Origin: a virus
Taxonomy: Duplodnaviria; Caudoviricetes
Length of the DNA stretch: 53,856 nt
IMG/VR virus record: IMGVR_UViG_3300020119_000151
Location: 1-53,856 of that record
Strand: one strand, 5' to 3'
Shown here in pieces: positions 3,221 to 38,673 of this stretch. The notes under the pieces are model-generated. The model had not been told where the DNA came from and did not search any database. It worked only from the letters and a program-made list of their open reading frames with translations. Position 1 is the first letter of the stretch. Each line of letters opens with the position of its first letter. The position numbers and the translations under genes were made by a program.

Positions 3221-4144
3221 ATGGACGAAGCAACGCAATATCTGAACGAGTGGCAGCAAGCGCAGGACCGTTATCGGGCCGGCGTCAATGCCGGTTACTC
3301 GGACGCGGACGCGCAACAGTTGTACCTCGCGCCCGTGCAAGCGAAATGGGACGTTCTGAAGTCGGTTCCGCCGGCATTGAAAACAAAAGCCGCGACTGAT
3401 CTGGATACGGCACACATCAACTTTTTGAAGGGCGTTCAGGCGGGCTATCAACCCGGGCAGGCCGCAGACCTCTATTTGAAACCCGCCCTGGCCGAATGGC
3501 AGGGCGCGGCCAACCTGCCCCAGCGCCAGCTTCCCAAGACTTTGGAACAAAGAACCGAGTGGTACGCTCAAAATCCGGCGATGCAACAGGAGGAATCCGA
3601 GGCCCAGCAGCAAATCGCGGAGGGCGTTCCGATCAAGGATGCCATCGAGGGACACCCGATGCTTTTGAAAGCGCCTGGCTTTTCCCAAGTGTGGCGTCCC
3701 ATGTATGAATCCGCCGTTCGCCGCGGTGAAACCGCACAGGCGAAAACGGAACAGGAAAACAGCCCTGAAGGACTGGCGCGGCAGATGTTTCAAATCGCCG
3801 CCGGACGCAAGAATTTCGCCGCTGATTCGCCGGCACAGGCGTTTTTCACCCAGCGCCTTGGTGAGCTTGAAAATCAGGCGACCAATGGGCCGGCGGCAAC
3901 CGCGCCGAACGTCGTTCCCGTGCCGTCGCAGAGATATGCTCCGAAACCGCCAGATGAAGGCCCAACGCCCGAAGAACTGGTTCAGGAGCAACATCCCGAC
4001 TGGACACCCGCACAGGTTAAGCTAGGGGTTTCCGGTAGATTGGGAGGGGCAATCACCCTACCCGAAGTAGGGGAAGTTCGTAAGGGATACCGCTACAATG
4101 GCGGCAACCCTGCCCTTAAATCTAATTGGGAAAAAGTCGAATGA
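3221..4144 (+). CDS. Putative ejection/DNA-transfer protein
   Basis: C-terminal PEVGEVRKGYRYNGGNPALKSNWEKV resembles a motif recalled from podophage internal proteins; ATGA overlap with next gene. Confidence 0.55.
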   Translation: MDEATQYLNEWQQAQDRYRAGVNAGYSDADAQQLYLAPVQAKWDVLKSVPPALKTKAATDLDTAHINFLKGVQAGYQPGQAADLYLKPALAEWQGAANLPQRQLPKTLEQRTEWYAQNPAMQQEESEAQQQIAEGVPIKDAIEGHPMLLKAPGFSQVWRPMYESAVRRGETAQAKTEQENSPEGLARQMFQIAAGRKNFAADSPAQAFFTQRLGELENQATNGPAATAPNVVPVPSQRYAPKPPDEGPTPEELVQEQHPDWTPAQVKLGVSGRLGGAITLPEVGEVRKGYRYNGGNPALKSNWEKVE

Positions 4145-7100
4145 GCGAACCTTGGGAAGATTTTCAACAAGGCGCGACGGTGGCAGACGCGCCATCTTCG
4201 GATACTCCACCGTGGGAAGATTTCAAGCCCGCCGTCCTCTCAGACCAAGCCAAGGCTGATTTGGTTGAAACGGCCAAGAAGAACGCCCAGCGGCAGGCCG
4301 CGCTGGGTCAGCCGTTTGCCGAGGTTCAGCCCGGCGGAGACGTGCAGCAACGCGCTCCCGACAACAACGCCGAAGCCAACCGTCAGGAATTCGCCAGCCT
4401 TCCGGGCCGGCTATCCAATGCGGCTGAAGAAGTCGGCGCGGAGATCCTGAACTATCCCGCCGAACTGTGGCGGGCTGATACCGGCAAACCCATGCAGTTT
4501 GTCGTCAAAAAGGACGAGAACGGCAAGGACCAGCTTACGACCGAGGAAAAGCCGCTTCCGTTCCAGCCTGGCATTTCCAAGTTTGAAAACTTCCAGATGG
4601 CGAATGAGGACATCGATCCGGTCAATTCGCTCATGGGCAAACTCGTCCGCGGCGCAGGGACGCCGGGGATGCTTTTGACGTTGCCCGCCGGAGAAGCAGA
4701 CCTTGTGAAAGGCTACTTTCTAACGCAAACCGTTCCTGGCGTCGTCGAGGGGGCGCAAGGCGCTTTGGACACCAGCAAAAGCACGAAGGAGCGCGTTGAA
4801 TCCGGCCTGTCGGGTACGGTGAACGGCCTTTTCTCATACCTGTTGGGGTTGAAGGCCGCAAAAACGCCGCCTGAGAAACTGGCGAGCGAGTTGAACGCTA
4901 CCACCCCTTTGCAGCGGGAAACGCCTGAAGGAGCCCAGCCGTCGCCAATCGTTCAAAAGGTGAATCAAAATCCTTGGGACGATTTTAAGCAGCCGGAGAC
5001 GCCGCCCGCGTTTGTAGGTGAGAAGCTTCCCGCCGGAATGGAAATCCAGCCCGTTGAAACGAAACCGGCTGAAAGTGAAACGAAACCGCCTGTTTCTGAA
5101 ACGGGCGAGCCATTAACTTTACAGCAAATTGCTGATAACCAAAAAGAGCAACACAACAAAACCGTCGCCATAATTCAAAAATTGCGCCCCGGCCTTGATG
5201 TCCAATCTGGGGGGCCAATGGGGGGTATTGAAATGTCTCCCAACGGAAAAGTATTGCGGGTTGGGCCGGAACTTCTTCAAAACGTGCAGGAAATGTATCC
5301 CGGAAGGGAGGAGGAAATAATTAGCCGATTGCTTGACGAGGAGGATATACACCGAAATCAATTCGACGAGCTAGGGGAAGGATTTCAGAAAAAACTTAGT
5401 GACTTGTGGAATGATGCGCCACAAGAAATAAAAAATCTGGTCAAAAGTATTTATTCAACAGACCCAGGAATGGAGGCGCATCATTGGGGCGCAGAATTGT
5501 TGCGAATGGGGCAACAGGCAAAAAACGGAGACTTAACCGAAACCGTCCATCCGACGCGCGGAGATACCGCAGCTAATGGGATTTCCAAGTTAAAAGATTG
5601 GGCGGAAAATCAAACGGGAGACATTGGAAAAGTATTGGGCAATAAGTCCCCAATCGAATCGCTGGGTGAAGGCATCGACTTTGCCACCATCCAAAAGCCG
5701 CATTTGGTCGGCGTCGAGGCAGGACTGAAGCTCACCCCTGAAGATGTTCCAGCGCTCCAAGCCTTGCAGAAGCAATCAGTCGGTGAAATGACCGCCGCCG
5801 CGCAGACCGGCGACAACGCGGCCTTTCAAACCCTGATGGGTAAAAACTCGTTTATCGGCGGCGCAATCGAGGGCGCAAGGCGTAAGGGTCCGAATTACGA
5901 TGTTTATCAATCCCTGAAATCTTCCCCGCCACCGGAATCACCAATTCCAGCGCCGGCAGTTCCGACAGCCGAACCAGCGGCGCAAACTCCCGTTCCGGCG
6001 GCGGGTGAAGTTCCGTCTGGATTCAAAGCTCCGCCCATGCCGGAAACATTCAATTCGGCAGAAGATGTTTTGAAGTATCGGCAGGCATATAAAGACGCCG
6101 AAATCGAGTTTTACAAGTCGCTTGGATTGACTGATGCCGAAGCAAACAAGTTTTTCCGCGCTGGAGACAGCCGAAGCAGCTTGGATGTGTCTAAAATTGA
6201 AGAAAAACTGACGCCTGAAAATCAGGCGCGACTGGATAGTTTTTCGCGTGGCGACGGTGGAGCGGTTTACCAATGGGACAGGCAATACAATCCCGAAGAA
6301 TTGGTTGACGAAACCAGCAAGTCAGATCTTGCCAGAAGCCTTGTCCAAAACATAGCCCGCGAATCTGCCCCGGCTGATTTTGGGGATAAGCTGCTTCATG
6401 GCGTCATCGCCTTACGAAACCTGAAAGCAAACGGGGGAACTTGGAGCGATGTTGCACGTGAGTTGGATTCATTCACTACACGTAATTCAGGTTCTCAAGG
6501 TGACAAGGCTGAATACTTTAAAAACCTTGGATTACAGTTAAGAGAATTTGCCGCCCGTCAGGGCATTGAATTGCCACAGGGGGATATGGGCGGAAAAATA
6601 CCCGATGTCCTGACGCACGGCGACGAGGTTCATGCCACCATGCCGGACGGCACGGAAGTCCAAGGCCACGTCATCGGCGCGGACAAAGAGGGCAACTCCG
6701 TCATCATCCAAAAGACCGGCGAAACGGTCACATTGCCAGAAAAACTAACGGAGGAAAAATCCCATGCCAATCCAAAGTCAAAAACAGTGGAAGTTCTTCG
6801 CAATCCACCACCCGGACCTGTTGAAGAAGTGGCAGGCGGAAAGCCCAGTGAGATTCAGCAGCCTGCCCCAGCACGTACCGCCGAAAGTGCGGGATTACCG
6901 ACCCAAAAAACTGCCGGTGTTCCTCAAGCCGGTTCCGGCGACGTAGCGCCAGAAGTTGAGTTTGTTGATTCGACAGGTTTGACTTCAATGCAGAAGGGCA
7001 AGCTAAAGAAAACCCTGTCCACCACGGTTTCAAAGCGAAACAGCCAAAAGACCTACACCGGCAGCAGGGCTAAAGTTGTCTCTGAAATGGTGAACGATGG

Positions 7101-10100
7101 GTACGAGCCAAAAACCGAACAAGTCAACGCCGTCCCAGATTTGAGCCGGAGACAATTTAATAACATGGACGGTCGGCAGCAGGAGGCGTTTGCAAAGCGT
7201 CAAGCCGAGGCTGGGAAGAAAACTGAATATCGGCTTGAGCATCCAAGCGGATCATTTTTTGATGTCACCAAGGCGGAACACGATTACGCAAAATGGCTAT
7301 CCGAAAGGAATCAAAAACCCGTCGAAACCCCGGTTCAGGCGACGGCGAAGGTTGCGGAGCATATTGCTGAAGTGAAGCAGGCCGAAGGCGCACGTCCCGC
7401 GAAGGAAATCAAAAACGAGTTGGTTGACCATCTGGAAAAGGCGGTTGAGGACGCCAAAGATGAGGATGAATACCTGAAATTGGAAACGGTCAAAGTTCAA
7501 ACCGGAACCCGAGCCAACGCTGCTTTGATGATGGAAGACAAGCCGCTTTCCGAAGTCAAAAACTTAACTAACGCCAATGGTGTTAGGTTTTTCAGCCAGC
7601 ACATTCAACGCGCTTTGGAAAAACATGCTCCGAAAATCGAAATAAACATTCCCGGCGATGGAGACTTCAAGATTTTCAACACCAAGCAGGCGTTGACCAG
7701 TGTTTTGGAACGTGCCAAGAAGATTCAGACAAGTTCAACTGAACCTGTTGCAATAAGCCGTTCTGGAACCTCCAAAGCAGACCGCGAATGGATTCAAAAA
7801 CAGCTTGAAAAACAGCCAGTCGAACCGCCCCCCGCGCAGCCCGCTGAAAAACTGGTCGGCATGGGCGCGGCCATCCCTGAAGAATTCAAGCAGGGCCAGC
7901 AATCGCCGACGAGTATCAAGAACGCCACCGTCGAAAACGAACGGGCCGCACGGGGATTGCCGCCGGCCATCCAACCCGCCAAGCGCGGATTTGGCCGCGT
8001 GTGGGATGAAGCCATGGCCGCGATTGACCAAGACCCGGCAATTCAAGACCGGCTGATTGACGAACTCCGCGCCAAACCCCGCGCATTGACTGATTTTGAA
8101 GATGCGTTGCTGCTCCATCGCCAGATCGAACTGCAAAACCAGTACGGCAAATTGACGCAGGAAATGGCCCAAGCGTTCGACGACTCCAAGGAGTTTCCTA
8201 ACCGGCTGGCTGACGTGGAGGAATTGAAGCCGCGCATTGCCAACGTCAAAGACCAGCTTTTCGACCTGTACGAAATCAACAAGCATGTCGGCACGGAAAC
8301 CGGACGCGGCCTGAACGCCCGCAAGATGCTGGCGTATGAGGATTATACCTTGGCGAAGATGGAACTGGACGCCCGCGCAGCCAATGGTGGACGACCGTTG
8401 ACTGAGGAAGAATCCGCGCAAGTAAAAGCGCTGCACGACAAGATTGAAAAACTTCGCAAGGAATATGATACCTACACCGCGCAAGCGCAGGCGCGAATCT
8501 CCGCGTTGGAAGCGGAAAAGGCCCTGAACGAAATCAAACAGGAGCCGCCGGTTGAGCCGCATGTCCGCATCATCGCCGACAAGGTGAAGAAGTATTTTGA
8601 TGGCCGCGCCATGGCCGCACAAAAGCGGTTATCGGGCAAAACCTTCTCGTTCGAGGCGGCATTGCCCGACCTGATTGATTTGGGAGTTTCAACCATCCTG
8701 TCCGGCGCGGCTGATTTCACCATCTGGTCATCCAAGATGCTGCAGAAGCTGGACAAGAGCATTGAGCCGTATCTGAAAACGCTTTGGGACAAGTCGCAAA
8801 ATGCGCTGGATGACCATCTTCAAAAAGGGATGGCTCCGCAAAATGTCCCGAAGGTGAAACGCGCCCTGAAAAACGTCCCCGCCGCCACCGCAAAAGAGCA
8901 GATTGTTGCCAAGCTCCGCAAGCGCATCGAGGCCGGAAAAAAGGATGAAATCACCGGATATGTTCTCAAGCTGGCGCGATTGCTGGTGTCCGAAGGCATC
9001 AAAGACCGCGATGTTCTGATTGATACCATCCACGAACACCTGAAGGAAATCGACCCGACTATCACCCGGCGCGAGACGATGGACGCCATTTCAGGCTATG
9101 GCGATTTCAAGCCGCTTTCCAAGGATGCCGTCTCAAAAGAGTTGCGCGACTTGAAAGGGCAAATGCAACAGGTTGCCAAGTTGGAGGACATGCAAGCCGG
9201 ACAGCCGCCGCTGAAAACCGGCATTGAACGGCGCATTCCGTCGAAGGAAGAAAGCCGGCTGATAAAGCTGGTGAACGAGGCGAAGCAGAAATTTCAGATC
9301 CCCATCACCGACCCGAACACGCAGCTTAAATCCGCCTTGGACACGCTCAAGACCCGGATGCAGACGCGCATCGAGGAGCTTCAGCAGAAAATCAAAGATA
9401 ACGACTTTTTGCCGCGTCCGAAGCGTGAACCTCTGAAGCTCGACACCGAAGCCTTACGCATCAAGGCCAATTTTGAGCGAGCCAAATTGGAATTTGAGCG
9501 GGCATTGCAGGATTACCGGCTGAAAAACCGTAAATGGTGGGAAAAGTCGGCGGATACGCTGGTAAAATGGCGGCGCGGCTTCCTGCTTTCGTCACCTGTC
9601 ACCCTGGCTAAGTTGACCAGTGCAGCGATTCAACGGCTGGCAATCACTCCCCTTGAGGAAGCGGTTGGCGCTGGCATCGGCAAGGCAATCCCACAAGTCG
9701 CGGCCAAAGCCCCCCGCGAAGGCGGGTTGAACACTAAAGCTGAAGCCAGAGCGTTGACGAGTGTTTTTAAACAAGGCATGAAGGACGCGGCCGAAACCAT
9801 CAGGACCGGCACAAGCCCGCTGGACGTGCTTTACGGGCAGGGCCGCGAGGGGTATGTCCGCGAAAGCATGAGTTTACCCCGTTCGGTCATCGACTTTTTT
9901 GGCAATCTTCACGCCATGCTGAAGGCTCCGGTGAAGCGGGCAGAGTTTGAACGCGCCTACGAGAAGCGCACGGAGCAAGCCATCCGTGAAGGCATAGACG
10001 TGACTGACCCCATGGTTCAAACCCGCATTGCGGTGGATTCTTACAAAGACGCCAATCGCTCAATTTTCCTGCAAGACAACTATCTTGCCACGAAGGTTAA

Positions 10101-10881
10101 AATGTTCTTCTCGGCGCAAAAGAAAAAAGGTGAGCAAACGATTGCCCCCGGCGCGAAGGCTTGGGAAACGACAGGGAAGGTCTTACTGCCCATCGTGCGC
10201 GTTCCGACGAACATCGTCGCCGAGACGTTCACCTATGCCTTTGGGCTTGGCTCAGGCAGTTTAAGGCTCGCCAATGCGCTCAGGAAGGGTTTTGACACGC
10301 TTCAGCCACAAGAGGCCGACTTAATCATGCGCGAGCTTAAAAAAGGCTCGCTGGGCTTCGCGGCGCTGCTTTACGGCTATTTCAACCCGACCATGTTCGG
10401 CGGATATTACCAACAGGGCCAGAAACGTGATCCCAATGATGCCAAGATCGGCAGCGTCAAGGTTGGTAGTGTCAACATCCCCAGCTTTTTGGTGCATAAC
10501 CCGCTTTTGGAGGTATTCCAGCTTGGGGCAACCGTCCGGCGCGTGGCTGATTCTAAAATCAAAGGCGAAACCCAGGGTTTGCCGGCCGGACTGATGGCTG
10601 GCGCACTCGGTTTGTCTGACGAGGTTCCTTTCGTGCGCGAAATGTTCGGGGAAATCCCGAAAATGTTCAATCCGCGCGAGCGCGGGGCATTTTTCGGAGA
10701 ACTGGCGAAGTCGATTTTCATCCCGCAGTTGCTCCAATGGCTTGCAAATTACACGGACAAAGACCAGAGTGGAAACACCAATCCGCGTTCGCCGCAGACA
10801 CCCTGGCAGCATGTCGAAACCGGAATTCCCGGCCTGCGTAAGAACGTGCCTGAAAAGAAACCAACCCAAATCAGCCAATGA
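4141..10881 (+). CDS. Giant (2,246 aa) internal virion / polyvalent-type protein
   Basis: ATG 4141 overlaps upstream TGA; PWEDF/PWDDF repeats; long helical C-terminal half. Confidence 0.7.
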   Translation: MSEPWEDFQQGATVADAPSSDTPPWEDFKPAVLSDQAKADLVETAKKNAQRQAALGQPFAEVQPGGDVQQRAPDNNAEANRQEFASLPGRLSNAAEEVGAEILNYPAELWRADTGKPMQFVVKKDENGKDQLTTEEKPLPFQPGISKFENFQMANEDIDPVNSLMGKLVRGAGTPGMLLTLPAGEADLVKGYFLTQTVPGVVEGAQGALDTSKSTKERVESGLSGTVNGLFSYLLGLKAAKTPPEKLASELNATTPLQRETPEGAQPSPIVQKVNQNPWDDFKQPETPPAFVGEKLPAGMEIQPVETKPAESETKPPVSETGEPLTLQQIADNQKEQHNKTVAIIQKLRPGLDVQSGGPMGGIEMSPNGKVLRVGPELLQNVQEMYPGREEEIISRLLDEEDIHRNQFDELGEGFQKKLSDLWNDAPQEIKNLVKSIYSTDPGMEAHHWGAELLRMGQQAKNGDLTETVHPTRGDTAANGISKLKDWAENQTGDIGKVLGNKSPIESLGEGIDFATIQKPHLVGVEAGLKLTPEDVPALQALQKQSVGEMTAAAQTGDNAAFQTLMGKNSFIGGAIEGARRKGPNYDVYQSLKSSPPPESPIPAPAVPTAEPAAQTPVPAAGEVPSGFKAPPMPETFNSAEDVLKYRQAYKDAEIEFYKSLGLTDAEANKFFRAGDSRSSLDVSKIEEKLTPENQARLDSFSRGDGGAVYQWDRQYNPEELVDETSKSDLARSLVQNIARESAPADFGDKLLHGVIALRNLKANGGTWSDVARELDSFTTRNSGSQGDKAEYFKNLGLQLREFAARQGIELPQGDMGGKIPDVLTHGDEVHATMPDGTEVQGHVIGADKEGNSVIIQKTGETVTLPEKLTEEKSHANPKSKTVEVLRNPPPGPVEEVAGGKPSEIQQPAPARTAESAGLPTQKTAGVPQAGSGDVAPEVEFVDSTGLTSMQKGKLKKTLSTTVSKRNSQKTYTGSRAKVVSEMVNDGYEPKTEQVNAVPDLSRRQFNNMDGRQQEAFAKRQAEAGKKTEYRLEHPSGSFFDVTKAEHDYAKWLSERNQKPVETPVQATAKVAEHIAEVKQAEGARPAKEIKNELVDHLEKAVEDAKDEDEYLKLETVKVQTGTRANAALMMEDKPLSEVKNLTNANGVRFFSQHIQRALEKHAPKIEINIPGDGDFKIFNTKQALTSVLERAKKIQTSSTEPVAISRSGTSKADREWIQKQLEKQPVEPPPAQPAEKLVGMGAAIPEEFKQGQQSPTSIKNATVENERAARGLPPAIQPAKRGFGRVWDEAMAAIDQDPAIQDRLIDELRAKPRALTDFEDALLLHRQIELQNQYGKLTQEMAQAFDDSKEFPNRLADVEELKPRIANVKDQLFDLYEINKHVGTETGRGLNARKMLAYEDYTLAKMELDARAANGGRPLTEEESAQVKALHDKIEKLRKEYDTYTAQAQARISALEAEKALNEIKQEPPVEPHVRIIADKVKKYFDGRAMAAQKRLSGKTFSFEAALPDLIDLGVSTILSGAADFTIWSSKMLQKLDKSIEPYLKTLWDKSQNALDDHLQKGMAPQNVPKVKRALKNVPAATAKEQIVAKLRKRIEAGKKDEITGYVLKLARLLVSEGIKDRDVLIDTIHEHLKEIDPTITRRETMDAISGYGDFKPLSKDAVSKELRDLKGQMQQVAKLEDMQAGQPPLKTGIERRIPSKEESRLIKLVNEAKQKFQIPITDPNTQLKSALDTLKTRMQTRIEELQQKIKDNDFLPRPKREPLKLDTEALRIKANFERAKLEFERALQDYRLKNRKWWEKSADTLVKWRRGFLLSSPVTLAKLTSAAIQRLAITPLEEAVGAGIGKAIPQVAAKAPREGGLNTKAEARALTSVFKQGMKDAAETIRTGTSPLDVLYGQGREGYVRESMSLPRSVIDFFGNLHAMLKAPVKRAEFERAYEKRTEQAIREGIDVTDPMVQTRIAVDSYKDANRSIFLQDNYLATKVKMFFSAQKKKGEQTIAPGAKAWETTGKVLLPIVRVPTNIVAETFTYAFGLGSGSLRLANALRKGFDTLQPQEADLIMRELKKGSLGFAALLYGYFNPTMFGGYYQQGQKRDPNDAKIGSVKVGSVNIPSFLVHNPLLEVFQLGATVRRVADSKIKGETQGLPAGLMAGALGLSDEVPFVREMFGEIPKMFNPRERGAFFGELAKSIFIPQLLQWLANYTDKDQSGNTNPRSPQTPWQHVETGIPGLRKNVPEKKPTQISQ
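6764..6946 (+). CDS. Candidate nested 60-aa gene in the +1 frame of the giant gene
   Basis: GGAGG at 6750-6754, 9 nt before ATG; MPIQSQKQWKFFAIHHPDLLKKWQAESP. Confidence 0.55.
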   Translation: MPIQSQKQWKFFAIHHPDLLKKWQAESPVRFSSLPQHVPPKVRDYRPKKLPVFLKPVPAT

Positions 10882-11285
10882 TGACGATTCGAACAAATAT
10901 AGGATTCCCGCCCGGCGGATTCATCTACGAAGACCCGCGAGTTCAAACCGCGAAATGGCTCGACGACCATACGAGCGTCGATGACCGAACGGCGGAGGTT
11001 GTAAAGTACCGTTCGGCAAATCCATCCATCTATCCCGAGCCGGAATGGACGCAACCGGACTATGTAAAACAGCAGATCATGGAGTTCAACTGTTTGCGCT
11101 GGGGCAACAATCCGCTGTATTGCGTGGATTCGAATGCGTTCAAGTCTGCTCCTGTTGTCCCCCAGGCGGCGCGGCTGTGTCCTGATTGCAACGTCGAAAT
11201 CACCCCAAAGTTTTGCCCGACCTGTTCAGGCCGGCGCATCATCGCTTACGAATGTCCCCAATGCAAAAAAGAATACCCCAAGTGA
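10878..11285 (+). CDS. Hypothetical protein with C-terminal Zn ribbons
   Basis: CPDC, CPTC, CPQC; coupled to both neighbours. Confidence 0.7.
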   Translation: MMTIRTNIGFPPGGFIYEDPRVQTAKWLDDHTSVDDRTAEVVKYRSANPSIYPEPEWTQPDYVKQQIMEFNCLRWGNNPLYCVDSNAFKSAPVVPQAARLCPDCNVEITPKFCPTCSGRRIIAYECPQCKKEYPK

Positions 11286-11665
11286 ACCATTTGACCGAAA
11301 GAGTAGGGCAATTCGCCGAAGGCGTCCGCATCCTCACGGACTGGCTGGGAAGCGGCGCGGTCACGGTTGACCCGGCGACGGCGCAACGACGGGCCGACAT
11401 CTGCCTGAAATGTCCGATGAACGTGAATGAATCGTTCACGGCGGAGACGATTGCCGCCGCCATACGGAAGCAGGTTGAGATAAAAAACCATCTTCAGTTG
11501 CGCGTGGGCGGCGAAAAGAATTTGAAAATCTGTTCAGGGTGCGGATGCGTTTTGAGATTGAAAATCCATGTGCCATTGGGCAATCTTGGCCTAGACGAAG
11601 AAGAATTGAAAAAGTTCCCTGATTTTTGCTGGATGCAATCGGAATTCAAAAATCTTAAAAAATGA
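11282..11665 (+). CDS. Cys-rich Zn-finger protein
   Basis: GTG overlaps upstream TGA; ICLKCP...CSGCGCVLRLK...CW. Confidence 0.7.
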   Translation: MNHLTERVGQFAEGVRILTDWLGSGAVTVDPATAQRRADICLKCPMNVNESFTAETIAAAIRKQVEIKNHLQLRVGGEKNLKICSGCGCVLRLKIHVPLGNLGLDEEELKKFPDFCWMQSEFKNLKK

Positions 11666-12330
11666 CCGTCAAACTTCCACCAAATGCGCGGCGGTCATCC
11701 AACCGCAAAATTCGTGCATTATATTGGCGGGAATACAGACGCAACCATTCAGGGGCTACGCGGGCCGCATTACGCCGGTCATATCGCAAACATTTGGTAA
11801 ATAGGAAGGCTGGAAAACGGGAGTATTATCGTAAAAACAGGGTTAAAATTCTTAAAAATGGCGAGGTTTATCGCCGCAAAAATCTTCTCAAGATTAAGGC
11901 CAAACAAAAGGCTTATCATGCCACTCGCTACCGGAGGGACGCCGCATACAGGGCGAAACTGATTGCTCAATCAACGCGCTGGGGTTTGGCTAATCCTCAA
12001 AAAAGACGCGATGCTGTAAGGAAATATGCCCGTAGAAACCCGCATGTTTATTTGGCAAAACATCATGCGTATAGGGCTGCTAAAATGAAAGCAACCATTA
12101 ATTCTACTGGCATTTCAGAATACATAAAATCGGTCAAAAATGCGCCAGTCGTATTTTGCTTCTTTTGCGTCCGACCCGTGCCAAATAAAAAGCGCCACAT
12201 TGACCACAAAACTCCGATCAGTCGCGGAGGAAAACACACCCTTGATAACCTTTGCTGTGCCTGTGAGCATTGTAATTGCGTTAAGGGTGATAAAACCGTA
12301 TTTGAATATAGGATGCTGGCTCCAAACTAA
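11662..12330 (+). CDS. HNH endonuclease
   Basis: CFFC..HIDHKTPISRGGKHTLDNLCCACEHCNCVKG; basic N-terminus. Confidence 0.9.
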   Translation: MTVKLPPNARRSSNRKIRALYWREYRRNHSGATRAALRRSYRKHLVNRKAGKREYYRKNRVKILKNGEVYRRKNLLKIKAKQKAYHATRYRRDAAYRAKLIAQSTRWGLANPQKRRDAVRKYARRNPHVYLAKHHAYRAAKMKATINSTGISEYIKSVKNAPVVFCFFCVRPVPNKKRHIDHKTPISRGGKHTLDNLCCACEHCNCVKGDKTVFEYRMLAPN

Positions 12331-20317: not shown

Positions 20318-21945
20318 AGGCATACGTCCAGCTTGGCAAAATCGGCGACGTGCTTTCAATCCTGCCGATACTGCAACACGATTACCAACTTCAGACACCG
20401 CTTCAATCGCTTCCCGGCACTGTGTCAAAAGTTCCTTTGGTGATAGCCAAAGAGTTTGCTTCCATCCTCGAAGGCGTGTCCTACGTCGAGCCGGTGATCT
20501 GGAAAGGCGATGCGAACGACTTGGCCGGCGCGATCATGTTCGCCAAAAAGCGTTTCAGTCAGGTTGTCGTCCTTCAGACCTGGGGAAATGTGCCGATTCA
20601 GCATCAAACGCCGTCCTTCCAGTTCGACCAGTGGAAGCGGGCGGGCGCGGTGCAATTCTTCGATGATTGGGCGCTTACTTTCGACAGGCGAAACCATGAA
20701 CGGGAAGCGCAATTCATGTCCCAAATCGGATGCGATATTAATAAGTGGAAATCTTACATCTTATTCGCAGACCATTCCCAAAGTAGTCCGTTCCTGCACA
20801 AAGAGGAACTTTATCAAATCTTGAACGAGATTGGCATGAGCCATCAGCCATTTCCCATAAAAGTGGTTCGCTTGTCAGAAATAAAAACTTTCAGAATTTT
20901 CGACCTTCTCGCCCTTTACGATAAGGCGCTGATGCTCGTCACCGTCGAAACAGCCCATTTACATCTTTCAAGAGCTTCCCATGTTCCAACCGTCGCGCTC
21001 GCGGCCCCAGGCTGGCGCGGTTCGGCGTTCTCGAAGCGATTCGCGTTCTTCATGCGCTATCCCGAGTGGGACAGCCGGAAGCAGGACTTGATTGCCGCCG
21101 TTCGCGCCGCCGTCGAAGGCCGGTCTATTGCGCCGAAGGTTGAGAAGCTGGATACTCGCCCCCTGCATTGCTACAACCTAGCCCATATTGATTTCAACGG
21201 AACAGAGCATTATTGCTACCGCGCTCACACGAACGGGAACTGGAAAACCAAGCTGTTCCTGAACGGAAACGAATTGCGGTTGCCGCCGAAGTACAAGGAC
21301 TATTCGCACGAAGATTTACGCTTCTTTGAGTTCAACGGCAAGCTTCACGGTGTCTATGTGATGTCAACGACGGTTGATAACTTCTTTCGCTGCTACGTTG
21401 CTTACGGCGAGATTCGCGGGAACGAGATTGACCACATCCAGATTCAGATGCCGGATAACAACCTGCTTGGGATGACCAAGAATTTTGTTCCATTCGTCCA
21501 TGAAAACCGCTTACATTTCGTGTATGGCATCAAAGGCCAAAATCAGATTGTCCTGGGAGTGGACCGAGACAAAGTGGTTGCCGAATATAAAGCGCCGGCC
21601 CCTGCCTGGTCATTCGGTGAGATCAGGGGCGGTTGCATCGTGCCTCACAATGGCGCATACCTTCGATTCTTTCATTCAAGGGCGCAGTATAGCGATAAGA
21701 CCCAACGCTACTTTGTCGGCACGTCCATCATCGAGGCGAAACCGCCATTCAAGACGCTGGCGGTAAGCAAGCGCCCCATCTTACAGGGCGACGAGTGTTA
21801 TACCCCTAATTGCCATCATTGGAAGGCGAACGTGATTATCTGCTACGGGTGCATAAAACAGGGGGATAAATTCCTTTTAAGCTGTGGAAGAAATGACGCG
21901 GAATGTATCATTGTTGAGTTGAGCGAGAGCGACTTAAACCTATGA
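20314..21945 (+). CDS. Fusion of a GT9-like glycosyltransferase and a five-bladed beta-propeller glycan-active domain
   Basis: QLGKIGDVLSILP and VETAHLHLSRASHVPTVAL; then HEDLRFF, KNFVPF, IRGG, FFHS. Confidence 0.65.
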   Translation: MKAYVQLGKIGDVLSILPILQHDYQLQTPLQSLPGTVSKVPLVIAKEFASILEGVSYVEPVIWKGDANDLAGAIMFAKKRFSQVVVLQTWGNVPIQHQTPSFQFDQWKRAGAVQFFDDWALTFDRRNHEREAQFMSQIGCDINKWKSYILFADHSQSSPFLHKEELYQILNEIGMSHQPFPIKVVRLSEIKTFRIFDLLALYDKALMLVTVETAHLHLSRASHVPTVALAAPGWRGSAFSKRFAFFMRYPEWDSRKQDLIAAVRAAVEGRSIAPKVEKLDTRPLHCYNLAHIDFNGTEHYCYRAHTNGNWKTKLFLNGNELRLPPKYKDYSHEDLRFFEFNGKLHGVYVMSTTVDNFFRCYVAYGEIRGNEIDHIQIQMPDNNLLGMTKNFVPFVHENRLHFVYGIKGQNQIVLGVDRDKVVAEYKAPAPAWSFGEIRGGCIVPHNGAYLRFFHSRAQYSDKTQRYFVGTSIIEAKPPFKTLAVSKRPILQGDECYTPNCHHWKANVIICYGCIKQGDKFLLSCGRNDAECIIVELSESDLNL

Positions 21946-22538
21946 AAAAGCCTGAAAATTTCGACCGATGGCAAGACATGCTTCGTCGTTGCTATGATAA
22001 AATGCGACCCATGTTCAAATATTATGGAGCGCGGGGCATTCGGGTGTGTGAATTTTTAAGGGCATCCCCAGCCAATCTTACGGCCGTGCTTGGCAAGCAG
22101 CCTACAAAAAAACATTCAATGGACCGGAAGGAAAATGACGACAATTATTCATGCGGCGCTTGCGCGGAATGTCTATACAAAGGATGGAAGCTGAACCTTC
22201 GTTGGGCAACGCCTGTTGAGCAATCAAGAAACCGGCGATTTGTTCACCGAATAGAGGTTCATGGTGAAATCCTAACTCCGCCTGAAATCGCCGACAAATA
22301 CAAGATTCCATACCGCACCATAAAAACCAGGATGGCGAACGGCGAGACGGGCGATGCTCTTGCATTACCTGTGACCAAAACAGCAACCTATCGGTATCAG
22401 GGTAAGATGCGTTCCATCCCACAAATAGCAAAGCTTTCAGGCGTTCCAAAGAGAAGGATTTATTTGCTTCGAGAGCAGTATGACGATTTTTTAAAAAAAA
22501 TAGGCGACTATCCCCTCACGACAAGTAATGAAAAATAA
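21942..22538 (+). CDS. HNH-type homing endonuclease-like protein; C-terminus extended by the inserted cassette
   Basis: WQDMLRRC..YYGARGIRVC..SMDR..NLRWATPVEQSRNR. Confidence 0.8.
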   Translation: MKKPENFDRWQDMLRRCYDKMRPMFKYYGARGIRVCEFLRASPANLTAVLGKQPTKKHSMDRKENDDNYSCGACAECLYKGWKLNLRWATPVEQSRNRRFVHRIEVHGEILTPPEIADKYKIPYRTIKTRMANGETGDALALPVTKTATYRYQGKMRSIPQIAKLSGVPKRRIYLLREQYDDFLKKIGDYPLTTSNEK

Positions 22539-23168
22539 GCCAAAACTTTTAGACCTTTATTGCTGTGCCGGTGGCGCAGGCGAAGGCTATCGCCTTGCGG
22601 GCTTTGATGTGACCGGCGTTGACATCCAGCCACAGCCGAAGAATCCGCATCGTTTCGTGCTGGCCGATGCGTTGGAATATTTGGCGGAACATGGGCACGA
22701 ATACGACGCAATCCACGCCTCGCCGCCGTGCCAAGCCTACACGAAGGCGGGAAAGCAATGGCGAAAAGAAGGCCGCGAATATCCAGACTTGATTGCATCT
22801 ACACGCGCTGGTTTGGAAAAGACAGGAAAGCCATGGGTAATAGAGAATGTGCCGGGAAGTCCGCTGCAAAATCCAATATTGCTGAACGGTTCAGTGTTCG
22901 GAATCCGAGTCCACAAGCCGCGACTGTTTGAAACCAGCTTCCCCATTGAACAACCGGAGGTGCCGTCGATGAAACCTGTTAAAATGGGCCGTCCGATTAA
23001 AGACGGTGAAATAGTTCAGCCCGTTGGTCACTTCTCTGGTGTTCGTTACGCCGCCAAAGAAATGGGACTGTTATGGATGGGGCAAAGTGAACTGGCGCAA
23101 GCTATCCCGCCAGCCTATACAAAATGGATAGCAAAATACCTCTTACTTGTCGTGAGGGGATAGTCGCC
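22503..23168. mobile_element. Non-autonomous IS1595-like mobile insertion cassette carrying a DNA methyltransferase
   Basis: Perfect 26-bp inverted repeats GGCGACTATCCCCTCACGACAAGTAA (22503-22528, 23143-23168); 8-bp direct repeat AAAAAATA (22495-22502, 23169-23176). Confidence 0.9.
22528..23163 (+). CDS. Compact DNA (cytosine-5) methyltransferase
   Basis: LLDLYCCAGGAG (motif I), HASPPCQ (IV), VIENV (VI), ELAQAIPP (X). Confidence 0.9.
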   Translation: MKNKPKLLDLYCCAGGAGEGYRLAGFDVTGVDIQPQPKNPHRFVLADALEYLAEHGHEYDAIHASPPCQAYTKAGKQWRKEGREYPDLIASTRAGLEKTGKPWVIENVPGSPLQNPILLNGSVFGIRVHKPRLFETSFPIEQPEVPSMKPVKMGRPIKDGEIVQPVGHFSGVRYAAKEMGLLWMGQSELAQAIPPAYTKWIAKYLLLVVRG

Positions 23169-23175
23169 AAAAAAT

Positions 23176-23787
23176 ATGAACATCTTCGACAAAATTGAAA
23201 CCGTCCACGCTTCCACCGAAGGGTGGTGTTCTCAAAAAAAAGCGTTCACGCTCGCCGCCATCGTCATTTCAACCCAGCCAGAAATCAGCGTTGAGATCGG
23301 AGTCTTTTACGGCAAAAGCCTCCTACCCGTCGCGCTGGCACACCAGCATATCGGCAAAGGCGGCGTTATCGCCATCGACCCATGGATGGCGGAAGCGTCC
23401 ATCGCCGGCCAAGTGAATCCCCAGGATGTTGAATACTGGAACCGTCAGCACATTCATCAAACCGCCTACGAAGCATTTCGTAAAAAGGTGTACGAGCTTG
23501 GCTTGCAGAACATGGTACGCATCGAGCGCAAGAAATCGGACGACTTTGAGCCGCCGGCCGACATCGGGCTTTTGAGCGTGGACGGAAATCACGGCGAGCA
23601 GGCGATTCGGGACGTGGAGCGATACGCCCCGAAGGTGAAGCGCGGCGGCTTCCTCGTCGCCGATGACATTGAATGGACCGGCGGCGCGGTGGGGAAAGCA
23701 ATCTCCCTGTTGCCTGGAATGGGCTTTGTGGAAATGTATCGGGTGAAGAACGAACAAGAATCTTGGGCGGTTTTCCAGCGTCTATGA
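23176..23787 (+). CDS. Class I SAM methyltransferase (Methyltransf_24-like)
   Basis: VEIGVFYGKS, IAIDPW, LLSVDGNH, GGFLVADD. Confidence 0.85.
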   Translation: MNIFDKIETVHASTEGWCSQKKAFTLAAIVISTQPEISVEIGVFYGKSLLPVALAHQHIGKGGVIAIDPWMAEASIAGQVNPQDVEYWNRQHIHQTAYEAFRKKVYELGLQNMVRIERKKSDDFEPPADIGLLSVDGNHGEQAIRDVERYAPKVKRGGFLVADDIEWTGGAVGKAISLLPGMGFVEMYRVKNEQESWAVFQRL

Positions 23788-25335: not shown

Positions 25336-25631
25336 AGTATCATCTCCCCGCAGTCCTTGCACACGTCGATTGCCTCCGGCGAGCATTGGATATGCTCAAT
25401 GGTTGGATGCTTGCATTCGGCCTGAATAGCATTCGATGCCCGGCGTAGCTCGCTAACTGCCTTGGCGTGACGAATGTCTTCTTCCGTCTCAAGCTTTTCC
25501 TGAGCAGCCATGCGCTCTTTAATGGATGGCTTGGGTTCTTGTGCGCGACGAACGTATTCACGCCCTTCTTCAAATGGGTTGCCCTGTGGCTGCGAGTATG
25601 CGTCAGATAGATTTGCCATAAATTTATACAA
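25332..25631 (-). CDS. Hypothetical protein with Zn ribbon
   Basis: CKH...CKDCG. Confidence 0.6.
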   Translation of the reverse strand: MYKFMANLSDAYSQPQGNPFEEGREYVRRAQEPKPSIKERMAAQEKLETEEDIRHAKAVSELRRASNAIQAECKHPTIEHIQCSPEAIDVCKDCGEMIL

Positions 25632-26418
25632 GTTCTGCTTGGTGCGGTTCCGGCATGGAGTCGTGTTTCTGCCGATTCACCAATTTTATCAGCGGTCGGC
25701 AGTTGGAGTAGTGGAAGGCATTTTTCAACTGGGCCTCGTCGCGTAAATCAAAGCTCGCCAGCGGAATTGTGTGGTCGATCTCCCAATAGGTTCCCCAGTT
25801 CTCCCAAGTCATGTTCGCATCAAAGCGTTCTTCTAAGTACGCCTTGTAAAACTCCACCGTGCAGCCGATGAGTTCAAAGGTGCGGTGAGACTTGGCTATG
25901 CCACCTTCGCGCAACGCATCGCCAATGGTGCGGCGGGAGCCTTCGCGCAGGCGATAAAGTGGGTCGGTAGCCCACCGAATCTTTCTCAACTCGCGGCGGC
26001 GCGGGCCGTATGCTTTTCGATATTCCTTAACCCATTCCTGATTTTTTGAAAGCCAGGATTTCACATCGGCACTCAGCTTCTCTTTATTTTTGTGGTAGTA
26101 GGAAACATTTCTGGCCCTGATTTTATCAGGGCTTCGCTTCGCTGACTCAATGGACTGTTTGCGACGCTTCTCCTGATTGGCCGCATAGAAGGCGTTTCCC
26201 TGCGCCCTCAATTTATCAAGATTTTTAAGCCTGTAAGCGCGGTAATACTCACGGTTCTTTTCGCGGTTTGCTTCACGCCAAGCCCTGTTGTAGGCCACCA
26301 TGTCAGGAATTCTTTTGGCCTGTGATTTCTTCTCGATGGTTCTAATCTTTTTCAGATTTTCAGCGCGATATTTACGCGCACGAACATTCGCTGGCGACAT
26401 TGAAAGTTCTTTACTCAT
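25624..26418 (-). CDS. HNH-type homing endonuclease
   Basis: MTWENWG..WEIDHTIPLASF..FHYSNCRPL..NRQK; basic repetitive N-terminus. Confidence 0.85.
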   Translation of the reverse strand: MSKELSMSPANVRARKYRAENLKKIRTIEKKSQAKRIPDMVAYNRAWREANREKNREYYRAYRLKNLDKLRAQGNAFYAANQEKRRKQSIESAKRSPDKIRARNVSYYHKNKEKLSADVKSWLSKNQEWVKEYRKAYGPRRRELRKIRWATDPLYRLREGSRRTIGDALREGGIAKSHRTFELIGCTVEFYKAYLEERFDANMTWENWGTYWEIDHTIPLASFDLRDEAQLKNAFHYSNCRPLIKLVNRQKHDSMPEPHQAELV

Positions 26419-36793: not shown

Positions 36794-37750
36794 TCAAATC
36801 TTCATGGCTTCAAACGCTGCTTGGATGAACTCCGCCGCGAGGACCGGATTGATAGCGTTGCCAAAACCAGTGATGACAGCCATTCGCGCGGGAAACCCAT
36901 TAACCAGCGGGAATGCTCCGGGTTCAAAACGCCGGGCTTTACCGTCCCGGCATTGGGCGATGCAATACCTGGACCAGAAGCCGGGAGAACTTCCGTGATA
37001 TATCCGCCAGTCCTTCCCGTCGCTATCCGTGAAGGCCGCAGGTTCTTCCGGTCTATCACATCCATGGCTGTGCACGTCGGCCAGGGCGTCAATGGCTGCG
37101 CGGCTTGGTCTAACAACGATTGGCCGGTATGCGCCCCCCCGCGCCTTCTTGTCCGCGTCCGTCTCCGGGCTCCCCCTCGTCGCATCGCAACAGTTCGGAG
37201 TCGCCCAAGGCGCCAGCGGCGCCCCGCCGTGAACGACCTGGTTCGCCAGTTGGTCAACAGCAATCCAGTGGAGTCTTGGGCGGTTATGCGGCGCTTTGAC
37301 GCCCGCAGAGCAGAGATCGGCGCCCCCGAAGGCATAGCCACCGTTTTCCATGTCAGAACGAACTCGGGCGAGCCATCCAAATCCATCCTTCTTTGCAACC
37401 TGCTCACCAAGGACGATTGCAGGACGGCAGATGCCGATGAGGTTGCGAAAATACGGCCACAGATGGCGCTCGTCAGCTTCTCCCAATCCCTGTCCAGCAA
37501 CGCTAAACGGCTGGCATGGGCAGGAGCCGGTCCACAGGGTATGCTCGTCGCTGATGCCGGCGAGCCGGAGGGCGAGACTCCACCCGCCGATGCCGGCGAA
37601 GAAATGGCATTGCCGGTATCCGGCGAGGTCTTTTGGTGTGACATCTTGAATGTTCCTTTCGTCTATGTCGCCGGCCGGGATGCTTCCCTGCTCAATCAGG
37701 GCGCGGAGCCACTGGACGGCTTTTGGGTTGTGTTCGTTGTAGTAGTTCAT
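36794..37750 (-). CDS. DNA (cytosine-5) methyltransferase, alpha chain
   Basis: HFFAGIGG (motif I), GSCPCQPFS (IV), GEQV (VI), APHNRPR (VIII), GFGNAI (X). Confidence 0.9.
   Translation of the reverse strand: MNYYNEHNPKAVQWLRALIEQGSIPAGDIDERNIQDVTPKDLAGYRQCHFFAGIGGWSLALRLAGISDEHTLWTGSCPCQPFSVAGQGLGEADERHLWPYFRNLIGICRPAIVLGEQVAKKDGFGWLARVRSDMENGGYAFGGADLCSAGVKAPHNRPRLHWIAVDQLANQVVHGGAPLAPWATPNCCDATRGSPETDADKKARGGAYRPIVVRPSRAAIDALADVHSHGCDRPEEPAAFTDSDGKDWRIYHGSSPGFWSRYCIAQCRDGKARRFEPGAFPLVNGFPARMAVITGFGNAINPVLAAEFIQAAFEAMKI
36802..37644 (-). CDS. Overlapping beta chain of the C5 methyltransferase (start uncertain)
   Basis: Alternate frame open for 280 codons, ending LNPEHSRWLMGFPREW (motif IX-like). 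Confidence 0.75.
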   Translation of the reverse strand: MSHQKTSPDTGNAISSPASAGGVSPSGSPASATSIPCGPAPAHASRLALLDRDWEKLTSAICGRIFATSSASAVLQSSLVSRLQRRMDLDGSPEFVLTWKTVAMPSGAPISALRASKRRITAQDSTGLLLTNWRTRSFTAGRRWRLGRLRTVAMRRGGARRRTRTRRRGGAHTGQSLLDQAAQPLTPWPTCTAMDVIDRKNLRPSRIATGRTGGYITEVLPASGPGIASPNAGTVKPGVLNPEHSRWLMGFPREWLSSLVLATLSIRSSRRSSSKQRLKP

Positions 37751-38673
37751 TCGCACAGTCCTGACTGACAGGGCGCGTGTGAATCGTCCTGGTTAAAATC
37801 TTCTTCCTCCAACATTTCGGCGGTGATCGCCAGCTTTGCCCCGCGCTGTGTCATCGACCACTTCGCCACGTCGTCAATCGTCGCCACGTTCATGGCGCCC
37901 TTCTTGGTCATCACCGGACGGGAACGGAACCTTTCCGGAACCGTCTTGCGATGGAACCACGATGAATAATCGGTGATGCTGCCCCGGGAAACCCGGTAGG
38001 CGCTGACAACCAATTCCCACACCCGGTAAATGGTAAGCACCTCGGGACGTTTCCGCAGCGTCCTCCGGACGTCGGGTTTGTTCGACATGATGCAGATGCG
38101 ACAGCCAACCCGCTTCCATCCGAGCGTGTACAGCGGATTGATGGGCAGCTTCCAGCGGCGATGCGCGTCCCACACTTGCGCGATGGTCCAGGTGAGCAGC
38201 GGACGGCGTACGCGACAGCCGAAGATGTCGTTGCCCCATTCCTCCATCATGCTGCGCTCAATCGATTCGTTCGCCCGCACTCCTGAATGGCTTACGATTT
38301 CGTGTCCCTTCGCCCGCAGTTCGGCGATGTATTTCTCAAGCGGTTTGATCTTCAGGAACTCGGTACAGAAGCGCGTCTTGGCCGATGGAAATCGCCCCTT
38401 CCAGATGGCGAGCGCGAGGAACAGCGGGAACATCCAATACTTCTCGACCCAATCGCCCGAAGCCCGCAGGTACACGACTGGCGCCACCCCATGCTTCAGG
38501 CAATAGGCGTTCAGGTCTTTGATTTGCTGATAAACCTCGTCGTATTCGTTTTCCGTGTCCGTAAAGACACAGATGATGCTGTCCCTGGGGTAACCGCTCT
38601 CATGGATTGCCCACCCCAAAAGCGCGGTGGAGTCCTTGCCGCTCGACAGTCCGATGAGGTTCAGGCGTGACAT
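37747..38673 (-). CDS. PAPS reductase-family (CysH/DndC-like) protein
   Basis: SSGKDS PP-loop, FTDT, RFCTEFLK, GVRANES, PLLTW, NPLY..RVGCRIC. Confidence 0.9.
   Translation of the reverse strand: MSRLNLIGLSSGKDSTALLGWAIHESGYPRDSIICVFTDTENEYDEVYQQIKDLNAYCLKHGVAPVVYLRASGDWVEKYWMFPLFLALAIWKGRFPSAKTRFCTEFLKIKPLEKYIAELRAKGHEIVSHSGVRANESIERSMMEEWGNDIFGCRVRRPLLTWTIAQVWDAHRRWKLPINPLYTLGWKRVGCRICIMSNKPDVRRTLRKRPEVLTIYRVWELVVSAYRVSRGSITDYSSWFHRKTVPERFRSRPVMTKKGAMNVATIDDVAKWSMTQRGAKLAITAEMLEEEDFNQDDSHAPCQSGLCE

Follow-up and report, generated by a model that had tools for sequence, protein, structure and literature searches.

A complete viral genome of 53,856 bp with direct terminal repeats (IMG/VR record IMGVR_UViG_3300020119_000151; Duplodnaviria, Caudoviricetes), hereafter the window, meaning the whole stretch of DNA analyzed, carries between two of its genes a 666-bp element (22503-23168) that consists almost entirely of one gene for a predicted DNA methyltransferase. 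We read this element, with a probability of about 0.85, as a non-autonomous, passenger-only derivative, of the mobile insertion cassette (MIC) type, of a phage-found lineage of IS1595 insertion sequences (ISs). How phages gain single accessory genes between intact neighbors is mostly unexplained; here the vehicle is visible. The parts of the element and the two flanking genes are as follows, in window coordinates.

22495..22502, no strand: left copy of the target-site duplication (AAAAAATA); read from the sequence, identical to 23169-23176
22503..22528, forward strand: left terminal inverted repeat, 26 nt; arms 100% complementary, same repeat family as in transposase-bearing elements
22528..23163, forward strand: cargo, predicted compact C5-type DNA methyltransferase, 211 aa, running from repeat to repeat; phrog_363, conserved residues
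23143..23168, reverse strand: right terminal inverted repeat, 26 nt, coding for the last six residues (LLVVRG) and the stop; repeat and open reading frame (ORF) coordinates
23169..23176, no strand: right copy of the target-site duplication, its final base being the A of the next gene's ATG; read from the sequence
21942..22538, forward strand: upstream gene, HNH-endonuclease-like with a helix-turn-helix (HTH) domain; 22503-22538 (11 codons and stop) repeat-derived; phrog_3377, HTH_23
23176..23787, forward strand: downstream gene, class I S-adenosylmethionine (SAM) methyltransferase, its start preserved by the duplication; PF13578

The element is bounded by perfect terminal inverted repeats of 26 nt (22503-22528 and 23143-23168), whose arms are 100% complementary and separated by 614 nt. 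At up to three mismatches these two arms are the only matches to the repeat in the window, and dinucleotide shuffles with a match numbered 0 of 100. Directly outside the arms stand the two copies of the 8-bp direct duplication AAAAAATA. The cargo ORF occupies the interior from edge to edge: its ATG starts at 22528, the final base of the left arm, and its stop codon (23161-23163) lies inside the right arm, 8 nt before the element ends. In all, 636 of the 666 bp form one ORF with strong family matches, and GC content shows no anomaly over the element. An earlier, sequence-only reading of this DNA had described the repeats, the duplication and the placement of start and stop, and each of these descriptions is borne out.

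Removal of the element together with one copy of the duplication rebuilds a compact gene junction. The upstream frame then ends AAA ATA TGA, and the TGA overlaps the ATG of the gene at 23176, which is the ATGA overlap that the sequence-only reading had described. The same reading had called the insertion non-disruptive, and this holds with one qualification: the downstream start is intact, and the upstream ORF crosses the left arm and acquires 11 codons at its 3′ end, and thus an 11-residue tail.

No transposase accompanies the repeats, as had also been claimed: a six-frame search for PF12762 across the whole 53,856-bp window was empty, and the 33 ORFs scanned among the 76 listed matched no transposase or integrase family. 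Since an IS1595 transposase domain is missing from the entire record, we file the element as a derivative of an IS and not as an IS, and take it to be a passenger-only cassette that presumably moved in trans. Perfect inverted repeats around a short segment would also suit DNA that a site-specific recombinase flips between them. Such an invertible segment is extremely improbable here, given an 8-bp direct duplication outside the repeats whose removal rebuilds the gene junction, the fact that flipping would place the sole long ORF antisense to the operon, the absence of recombinase or integrase family matches in the same 33 ORFs, and the presence of the same repeats around DDE transposases elsewhere.

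The connection to IS1595 emerges from the occurrence of the repeat in other viral DNA. A degenerate version of the repeat, used as a search pattern, identified five viral loci with clear repeat pairs and 8-bp duplications. At one of these (L028), the repeat-bounded region contains a 96-aa stub with a match to Zn_ribbon_IS1595 (PF12760; expectation value, E, 2.5e-5; 24.6 bits, the cut-off being 25.4). Among the 120 matches listed of 667 significant ones, the best 12 relatives of the stub are 84-93% identical to it, measure 203-289 aa (eleven of them 285-289 aa) and all possess PF12762. One such protein, P0144, compared against viral contigs, has relatives at ten loci with 60-77% identity, and in nine of the ten, arms of the repeat family, 20-22/26 identical to the window arm, lie beside the transposase gene. 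The sequence-only reading had named a repeat that never flanks a transposase or other loci as something that would speak against it, and the outcome does not refute it: repeats bracket full-length IS1595 transposases at L030, L031/32, L033/34, L035, L037, L038 and L042, and those of L036 also enclose one. These transposases match DDE_Tnp_IS1595 (PF12762) at E 1e-40 to 1e-43 and the NCBIfam IS1595 transposase model (NF033547) at 205-217 bits against a cut-off of 75. Perfect 8-bp duplications surround the transposase elements of L030, L035, L037 and L038, and the outer 14 nt of the window repeat are identical to those of the transposase-bearing element of L037.

A second degenerate variant of the repeat returned 23 viral loci, and the resulting census, in which identical contigs are collapsed and the window is included, comprises 23 distinct repeat pairs. 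A perfect 8/8 duplication flanks 13 of them and a 7/8 duplication one more. The claim that IS1595 elements make 8-bp duplications thus agrees with the family itself (13/23) as well as with passages of PMC8101967, which attribute to IS1595 both these duplications and a Zn ribbon plus DDE_Tnp_IS1595 architecture. Across more than 20 viral contigs the repeat family takes three forms, namely, autonomous, internally deleted and passenger-only. The elements with full transposases measure 1.7-1.95 kb and carry passenger genes: L033, L035 and L038 have a PAPS (3′-phosphoadenosine-5′-phosphosulfate)-reductase-like protein (phrog_424, E 1.4e-43; PF01507 slightly over its cut-off), L042 a P63C-domain protein, and L030, L031 and L037 unknown proteins. 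Internal deletion is exemplified by L026, which retains the first ~27 and the last ~36 transposase residues as N- and C-terminal stubs and is an internal-deletion intermediate.

The transposase-less cassettes range from 218 to 1137 bp and vary widely in cargo. L052 encodes an N6_N4 DNA methylase (PF01555, E 5.2e-22), L055 a protein with a weak Methyltransf_11 match (22.4 bits against a cut-off of 21.2), and L048 a Phd/YefM antitoxin (E 1.1e-9); others encode proteins without a family match. On L025, two different cassettes lie 90 bp apart (10464-11266 and 11357-12145), each with a perfect 8-bp duplication, and one of them still has the initial 13 transposase residues. The five viral records holding cassettes L025-L029 lack PF12762. 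The L028 contig contains five copies of the repeat (672-697, 2134-2159, 2168-2193, 2660-2685 and 4000-4025) in a nested or rearranged arrangement, with a small two-ORF cassette abutting the truncated transposase stub; a 292-aa gene (1282-2160) stops within a solo repeat, which gives it a repeat-encoded C-terminus.

Closer copies of the window repeat were found in three metagenome contigs (L022, L023 and L024), which contain the exact 20-mer and sustain the expectation that the repeat occurs at other loci with other cargo. L023 harbors a 304-bp element (3442-3745) with imperfect arms and a perfect 8-bp duplication of its own. It fits precisely between two genes, with the stop of a 684-aa gene on one side and the start ATG of an NlpC/P60-like gene on the other. 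Its cargo is a different ORF of 89 aa that likewise ends ...RVVRG within the right arm. L022 and L024 display single arms, 25 and 26 of 26 identical to the window arm, each followed by a different small ORF, and both contigs stop before a second arm could appear. A possible degenerate second repeat in L024, recovered by gapped alignment only and over 14 aligned nt, was left out of the counts. The putative neighbors of these single arms are a GroES/GroEL-like gene pair (L022, 1-1974) and a tRNA-like stretch at the contig start (L024, 1-1002).

The window and L023 also resemble each other inward of the repeat. Window 23080-23142 and L023 3657-3719 are alike for approximately 20 nt beyond the right arm, and the two cargo proteins align over their final 16 residues. 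The resemblance hints at a common subterminal segment or at cassettes that swap their interiors.

The layout of the window element recurs. In nine of the 14 transposase-less cassettes examined, the main ORF runs in one constant frame to a stop beginning 8 nt from the end of the element, and the repeat-encoded tails are LLVVRG, LRVVRG, LLVVKG, LRVVKG, LPVAKG or IPVAKG. The nine are the following.

Window 22503-23168
L023 3442-3745
L027 8415-9394
L028 2168-2685
L041 2320-2537
L048 3408-3663
L052 4663-5380
L054 128-533
L055 165-721

The other five cassettes (L025a, L025b, L026, L029 and L047) have no such stop layout. In five of the nine (window, L023, L048, L052 and L054), the first start codon falls at element positions 26-30, that is, from the last base of the opposite arm to 4 nt beyond it. 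The common stop is in part a trivial consequence of the frame, in which every outward ORF is bound to terminate at this point; two antisense ORFs that also end here illustrate this. The triviality leaves the constancy of the frame unexplained. A VVRG-type tail occurs in none of the 120 transposase homologues among the matches listed, and no transposase-bearing copy with this layout was seen, though no systematic check for one was made.

The cargo of the window element is predicted to be a compact C5-type DNA methyltransferase. It matches phrog_363, "DNA methyltransferase", at E 6.2e-39, which makes it a passenger unrelated to transposition. The SAM-binding glycines, the catalytic Pro-Cys motif and the ENV motif of C5 methyltransferases are all present: G15, G16, C68 (after P66-P67) and E106-N107-V108 are invariant in 20 aligned homologues, and the cargo has every one of them. 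Many close homologues carry a precomputed PF00145 match. The family is large, with 7983 of 8000 scored candidates at E <= 0.001 and the best 87% identical, and relatives annotated as "DNA methyltransferase" stand in 49 GenBank phage records (48 Mycobacterium, 1 Gordonia). One relative, P0019, encoded on a 60.9-kb contig, is also 211 aa long, is 80% identical to the cargo and, besides the cargo, is the sole protein ending in VVRG among 134 compared; it is probably encoded by a second cassette with a C5 methyltransferase. A genome-contig search for P0019 recovered an 80% relative without flanking repeats in a Planctomycetaceae metagenome-assembled genome (MAG; L020), together with a Streptomyces locus. 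Among 401 genomes of the guessed host phylum, which is that of this MAG, 53 contain IS1595 transposases, none of them more than 44% identical to P0144.

The gene immediately upstream matches HNH endonuclease families (phrog_3377, E 9.9e-31; also HTH_23). It is therefore conceivable that the methyltransferase arrived by homing of this adjacent HNH-like gene, or by illegitimate recombination, and that the repeats are incidental; methyltransferase relatives with 81-87% identity do occur in unrelated phage contexts without repeats. Homing, however, creates no terminal inverted repeats and no 8-bp duplication and would not account for those observed. The endonuclease-like gene lies outside both repeats and the duplication, no such neighbor stands at the other same-repeat cassettes in the loci read, and perfect 8-bp duplications recur throughout the repeat family in the proportion given above. 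We consider an origin of this kind very improbable.

Traces of movement are preserved among the transposase-bearing relatives. Two stretches of phage DNA agree between L031 and L032, one of 2125 bp at 100% and one of 1447 bp at 99.9% identity, and an identical transposase element of 1874 bp (a 1879-bp BLAST match at 100%) occupies different places in the two. A 341-bp stretch of L031 is missing at the L032 element site, and neither copy has a clean duplication.

L031 3066-4939: the transposase element
L032 3066-4939: the transposase element
L031 7065-7405: the 341-bp stretch missing at the L032 element site

The L033 and L034 elements, in turn, share their right flank and differ in their left flank.

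As the window is a metagenome-assembled virus, its assembly was compared with independent contigs from four runs (X1-X4). A contig of run X3, which belongs to a different study, covers 23066-23209 without differences and so bridges the right junction with 103 letters on one side and 41 on the other. Past 33 nt of the next gene, the sequence of this contig remains similar but diverges, which would fit a related phage that holds the same insertion, or that gained it with its flanks by recombination. None of the listed independent contigs bridges the left junction. Contigs of X1 are identical to the window and fragmentary, and their piece at 22939-23196 extends a mere 28 letters past the right junction and was not counted as bridging; X2 and X4 contain short conserved parts only. 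The metagenomic origin and the unbridged left junction could prompt the suspicion of an assembly artefact, which the exact right junction of X3 and a repeat family that misassembly would not create, common to more than 20 other contigs with duplications of their own, render almost inconceivable.

Several findings weigh against our reading of the element as a passenger-only IS1595 derivative. Neither the viral contigs, apart from the window's own record, nor the genomes of 185,579 species, each represented once, contain the exact repeat 20-mer, and a 34-nt repeat query gave four chance-level partial matches of at most 18 nt in GenBank phages and none in plasmids; no host-borne partner is therefore known. 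The best repeat identity among transposase-bearing elements is 22/26 (L030, L036 and L037), and the arm matches at 25-26/26 all lie in transposase-less or truncated contexts (L022, L023, L024 and L026). Nine of the 23 repeat pairs have no flanking duplication. The next tier of stub relatives (72-74% identity) resides on contigs of 124-588 kb, which suggests that the IS1595 lineage may not be confined to phages. As to the cargo, its own match to PF00145 reaches 19 bits, below the 22-bit cut-off, and its best match among solved structures, a cytosine-specific methyltransferase, is weak (E 0.0045). Repeats of this kind are missing from the closest relatives of the methyltransferase (81-87% identity), so the gene exists outside cassettes too; in particular, flanking inverted repeats were looked for and not found at the four closest viral loci (81-86% identity), which resemble the window in the methyltransferase gene alone.

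Nor did the empty site that the sequence-only reading had hoped for come to light, either among relatives of the flanking genes in viral contigs or as a contig joining across the absent element in the four runs. For the downstream gene, viral contigs offer relatives of at most 34-35% identity (five loci), and none of 50 candidate viral stretches was confirmed as a relative of the upstream gene; because the flanking genes have no close viral relatives, no sister phage is available for this comparison. That the insertion is recent, as the sequence-only reading proposed, would follow solely from the perfect repeats and the duplication.

Some of the same findings would suit a stranded relic, which arrived by IS1595-type transposition and is now immobile for lack of a transposase that recognizes this repeat variant. 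The complete phage has no IS1595 DDE domain, transposase-bearing elements do not rise above 22/26 repeat identity, the exact 20-mer is missing from the 185,579 species genomes, and the X3 contig with the same right junction implies that vertical inheritance, or recombination in the flanks, also passes the insertion on. Against immobility stand the 100% identity of the arms and the intact duplication, the 14 outer nucleotides held in common with the transposase-bearing L037 element, and the repeats at 25-26/26 in three unrelated contexts with different cargo, which point to recent movement of this very variant. On balance we judge a relic unlikely, while granting it some weight.

If the element is indeed a passenger-only IS1595 derivative, its arrival may be pictured as follows. 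A DDE transposase of the IS1595 type would come from a related element, housed in a co-resident phage, a prophage or the host, and would act in trans and bind both 26-bp terminal repeats. Staggered cuts 8 bp apart would then insert the cassette into the AT-rich ATGA junction of two co-oriented phage genes. The methyltransferase would thereby join the operon and probably be translated by coupling to its neighbors, an expectation we derive from the start of the ORF at the edge of the left repeat and from the stop built into the right one. The enzyme, finally, may methylate the phage DNA and protect it from host restriction. The sequence-only reading likewise supposed an insertion mobilized in trans that would bring phages a methylation pattern.

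The surroundings of the cassette are those of an accessory or modification cluster, since a glycosyltransferase and a second methyltransferase also lie within 20.3-24.9 kb. The downstream gene (23176-23787) is itself a Methyltransf_24 protein (PF13578, E 9.9e-14). Further HNH or endonuclease-VII-like genes are located at 11662-12330 (forward strand) and 25624-26418 (reverse strand). The window also has a PAPS-reductase-like gene (37747-38673, reverse strand; phrog_424, E 6.6e-44); a tie between it and the cassette-borne passenger of L033, L035 and L038 was considered and rejected, the window protein being 23% identical and without repeats. A 2251-aa ORF (4126-10881) has no PHROG match at E <= 1e-5, and the same is true of most large ORFs of the structural half, so the phage stands far from described phages.

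Considered together, the cassettes raise a broader possibility, which we advance tentatively and with more doubt than confidence: the phage-resident IS1595 lineage may be a plug-in system, in which transposase-less cassettes shuttle genes for DNA modification or counter-defense between unrelated phages in a layout that avoids polar effects. The cargo set in question includes DNA methyltransferases of two or more unrelated families, another methyltransferase-like protein and an antitoxin, and the autonomous copies add the PAPS-reductase-like enzyme; DNA modification is thus a repeated concern of the cassettes. Were this so, a start placed against the inward side of one repeat, together with a stop of fixed position in the other, would let cassettes enter AT-rich coupled junctions, and a concrete mechanism would be at hand for the precise acquisition of "moron"-type genes between existing phage genes. 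Mobility in trans would let anti-restriction methylation, along with other small functions, pass horizontally between phages whatever their relatedness. For the insertion of genes into phage operons free of polar effects, the repeat-to-repeat ORF layout could offer a natural model as well.

Set beside the IS1595 insertion sequences, the window element shares the repeat family (20-22/26) and the 8-bp duplication and is without a transposase itself. Several of its transposase-bearing relatives have passenger genes next to the transposase, as in IS1595 members. Sub-groups of IS1595 with passenger genes were reportedly described by Siguier et al. in 2009. For some groups of the family, the sequence-only reading cited an end motif of the form GGnnAyTAT. 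A close formal parallel is offered by MICs. By the definition given in PMC3913671, a pair of IS inverted repeats encloses a passenger gene in place of a transposase, a duplication marks the insertion, and the cognate transposase moves the cassette in trans. The window element displays IS-type repeats, an unrelated passenger and a target-site duplication, and no transposase was found in it, much as in MIC231 of Bacillus cereus and the qnrD and qnrS2 mic elements (PMC3913671). For its movement in trans, the sole indirect sign is the occurrence of near-identical repeats around different cargo at unrelated sites. The known MICs of that account are IS231-derived (IS4 family) and reside on bacterial chromosomes or plasmids, whereas the window element belongs to the IS1595 lineage, sits in a phage genome, carries a DNA methyltransferase and has an ORF that extends from the repeat edge to a stop within the opposite repeat.

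The MITEs (miniature transposable elements with inverted repeats) of prokaryotic viruses are likewise non-autonomous, repeat-bounded and rare in phages, in which insertion sequences are also reported to be rare (main text of PMC11602168). MITEs, as that text has it, are non-coding, unlike the almost wholly coding window element, which is accordingly not classed among them. The words IS1595, methyltransferase, passenger and cargo were not found in the main text of this survey, and the literature covered, which includes this 2024 viral MITE survey (PMC11602168, main text) and excludes the primary IS1595 paper and supplementary files, describes no IS1595-derived coding cassettes of phages. The mechanism is a known one; what seems to have gone undescribed is its phage setting, DNA modification as cargo and an ORF that stretches from repeat to repeat.

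Two further kinds of phage-borne DNA invite comparison. The mycobacteriophage mobile elements (MPMEs) are ultra-small, repeat-bounded mobile elements whose single conserved ORF is their own and whose repeats are short (11 bp); the window element differs from them in its interchangeable cargo and its IS1595-type ends. Phage morons and orphan phage DNA methyltransferases, like the cargo described here, are single accessory genes between two phage genes. What defines morons is that they bring transcription signals of their own; the route by which they were acquired is mostly unknown. In the window element, by contrast, the vehicle is visible as a pair of repeats and a duplication.

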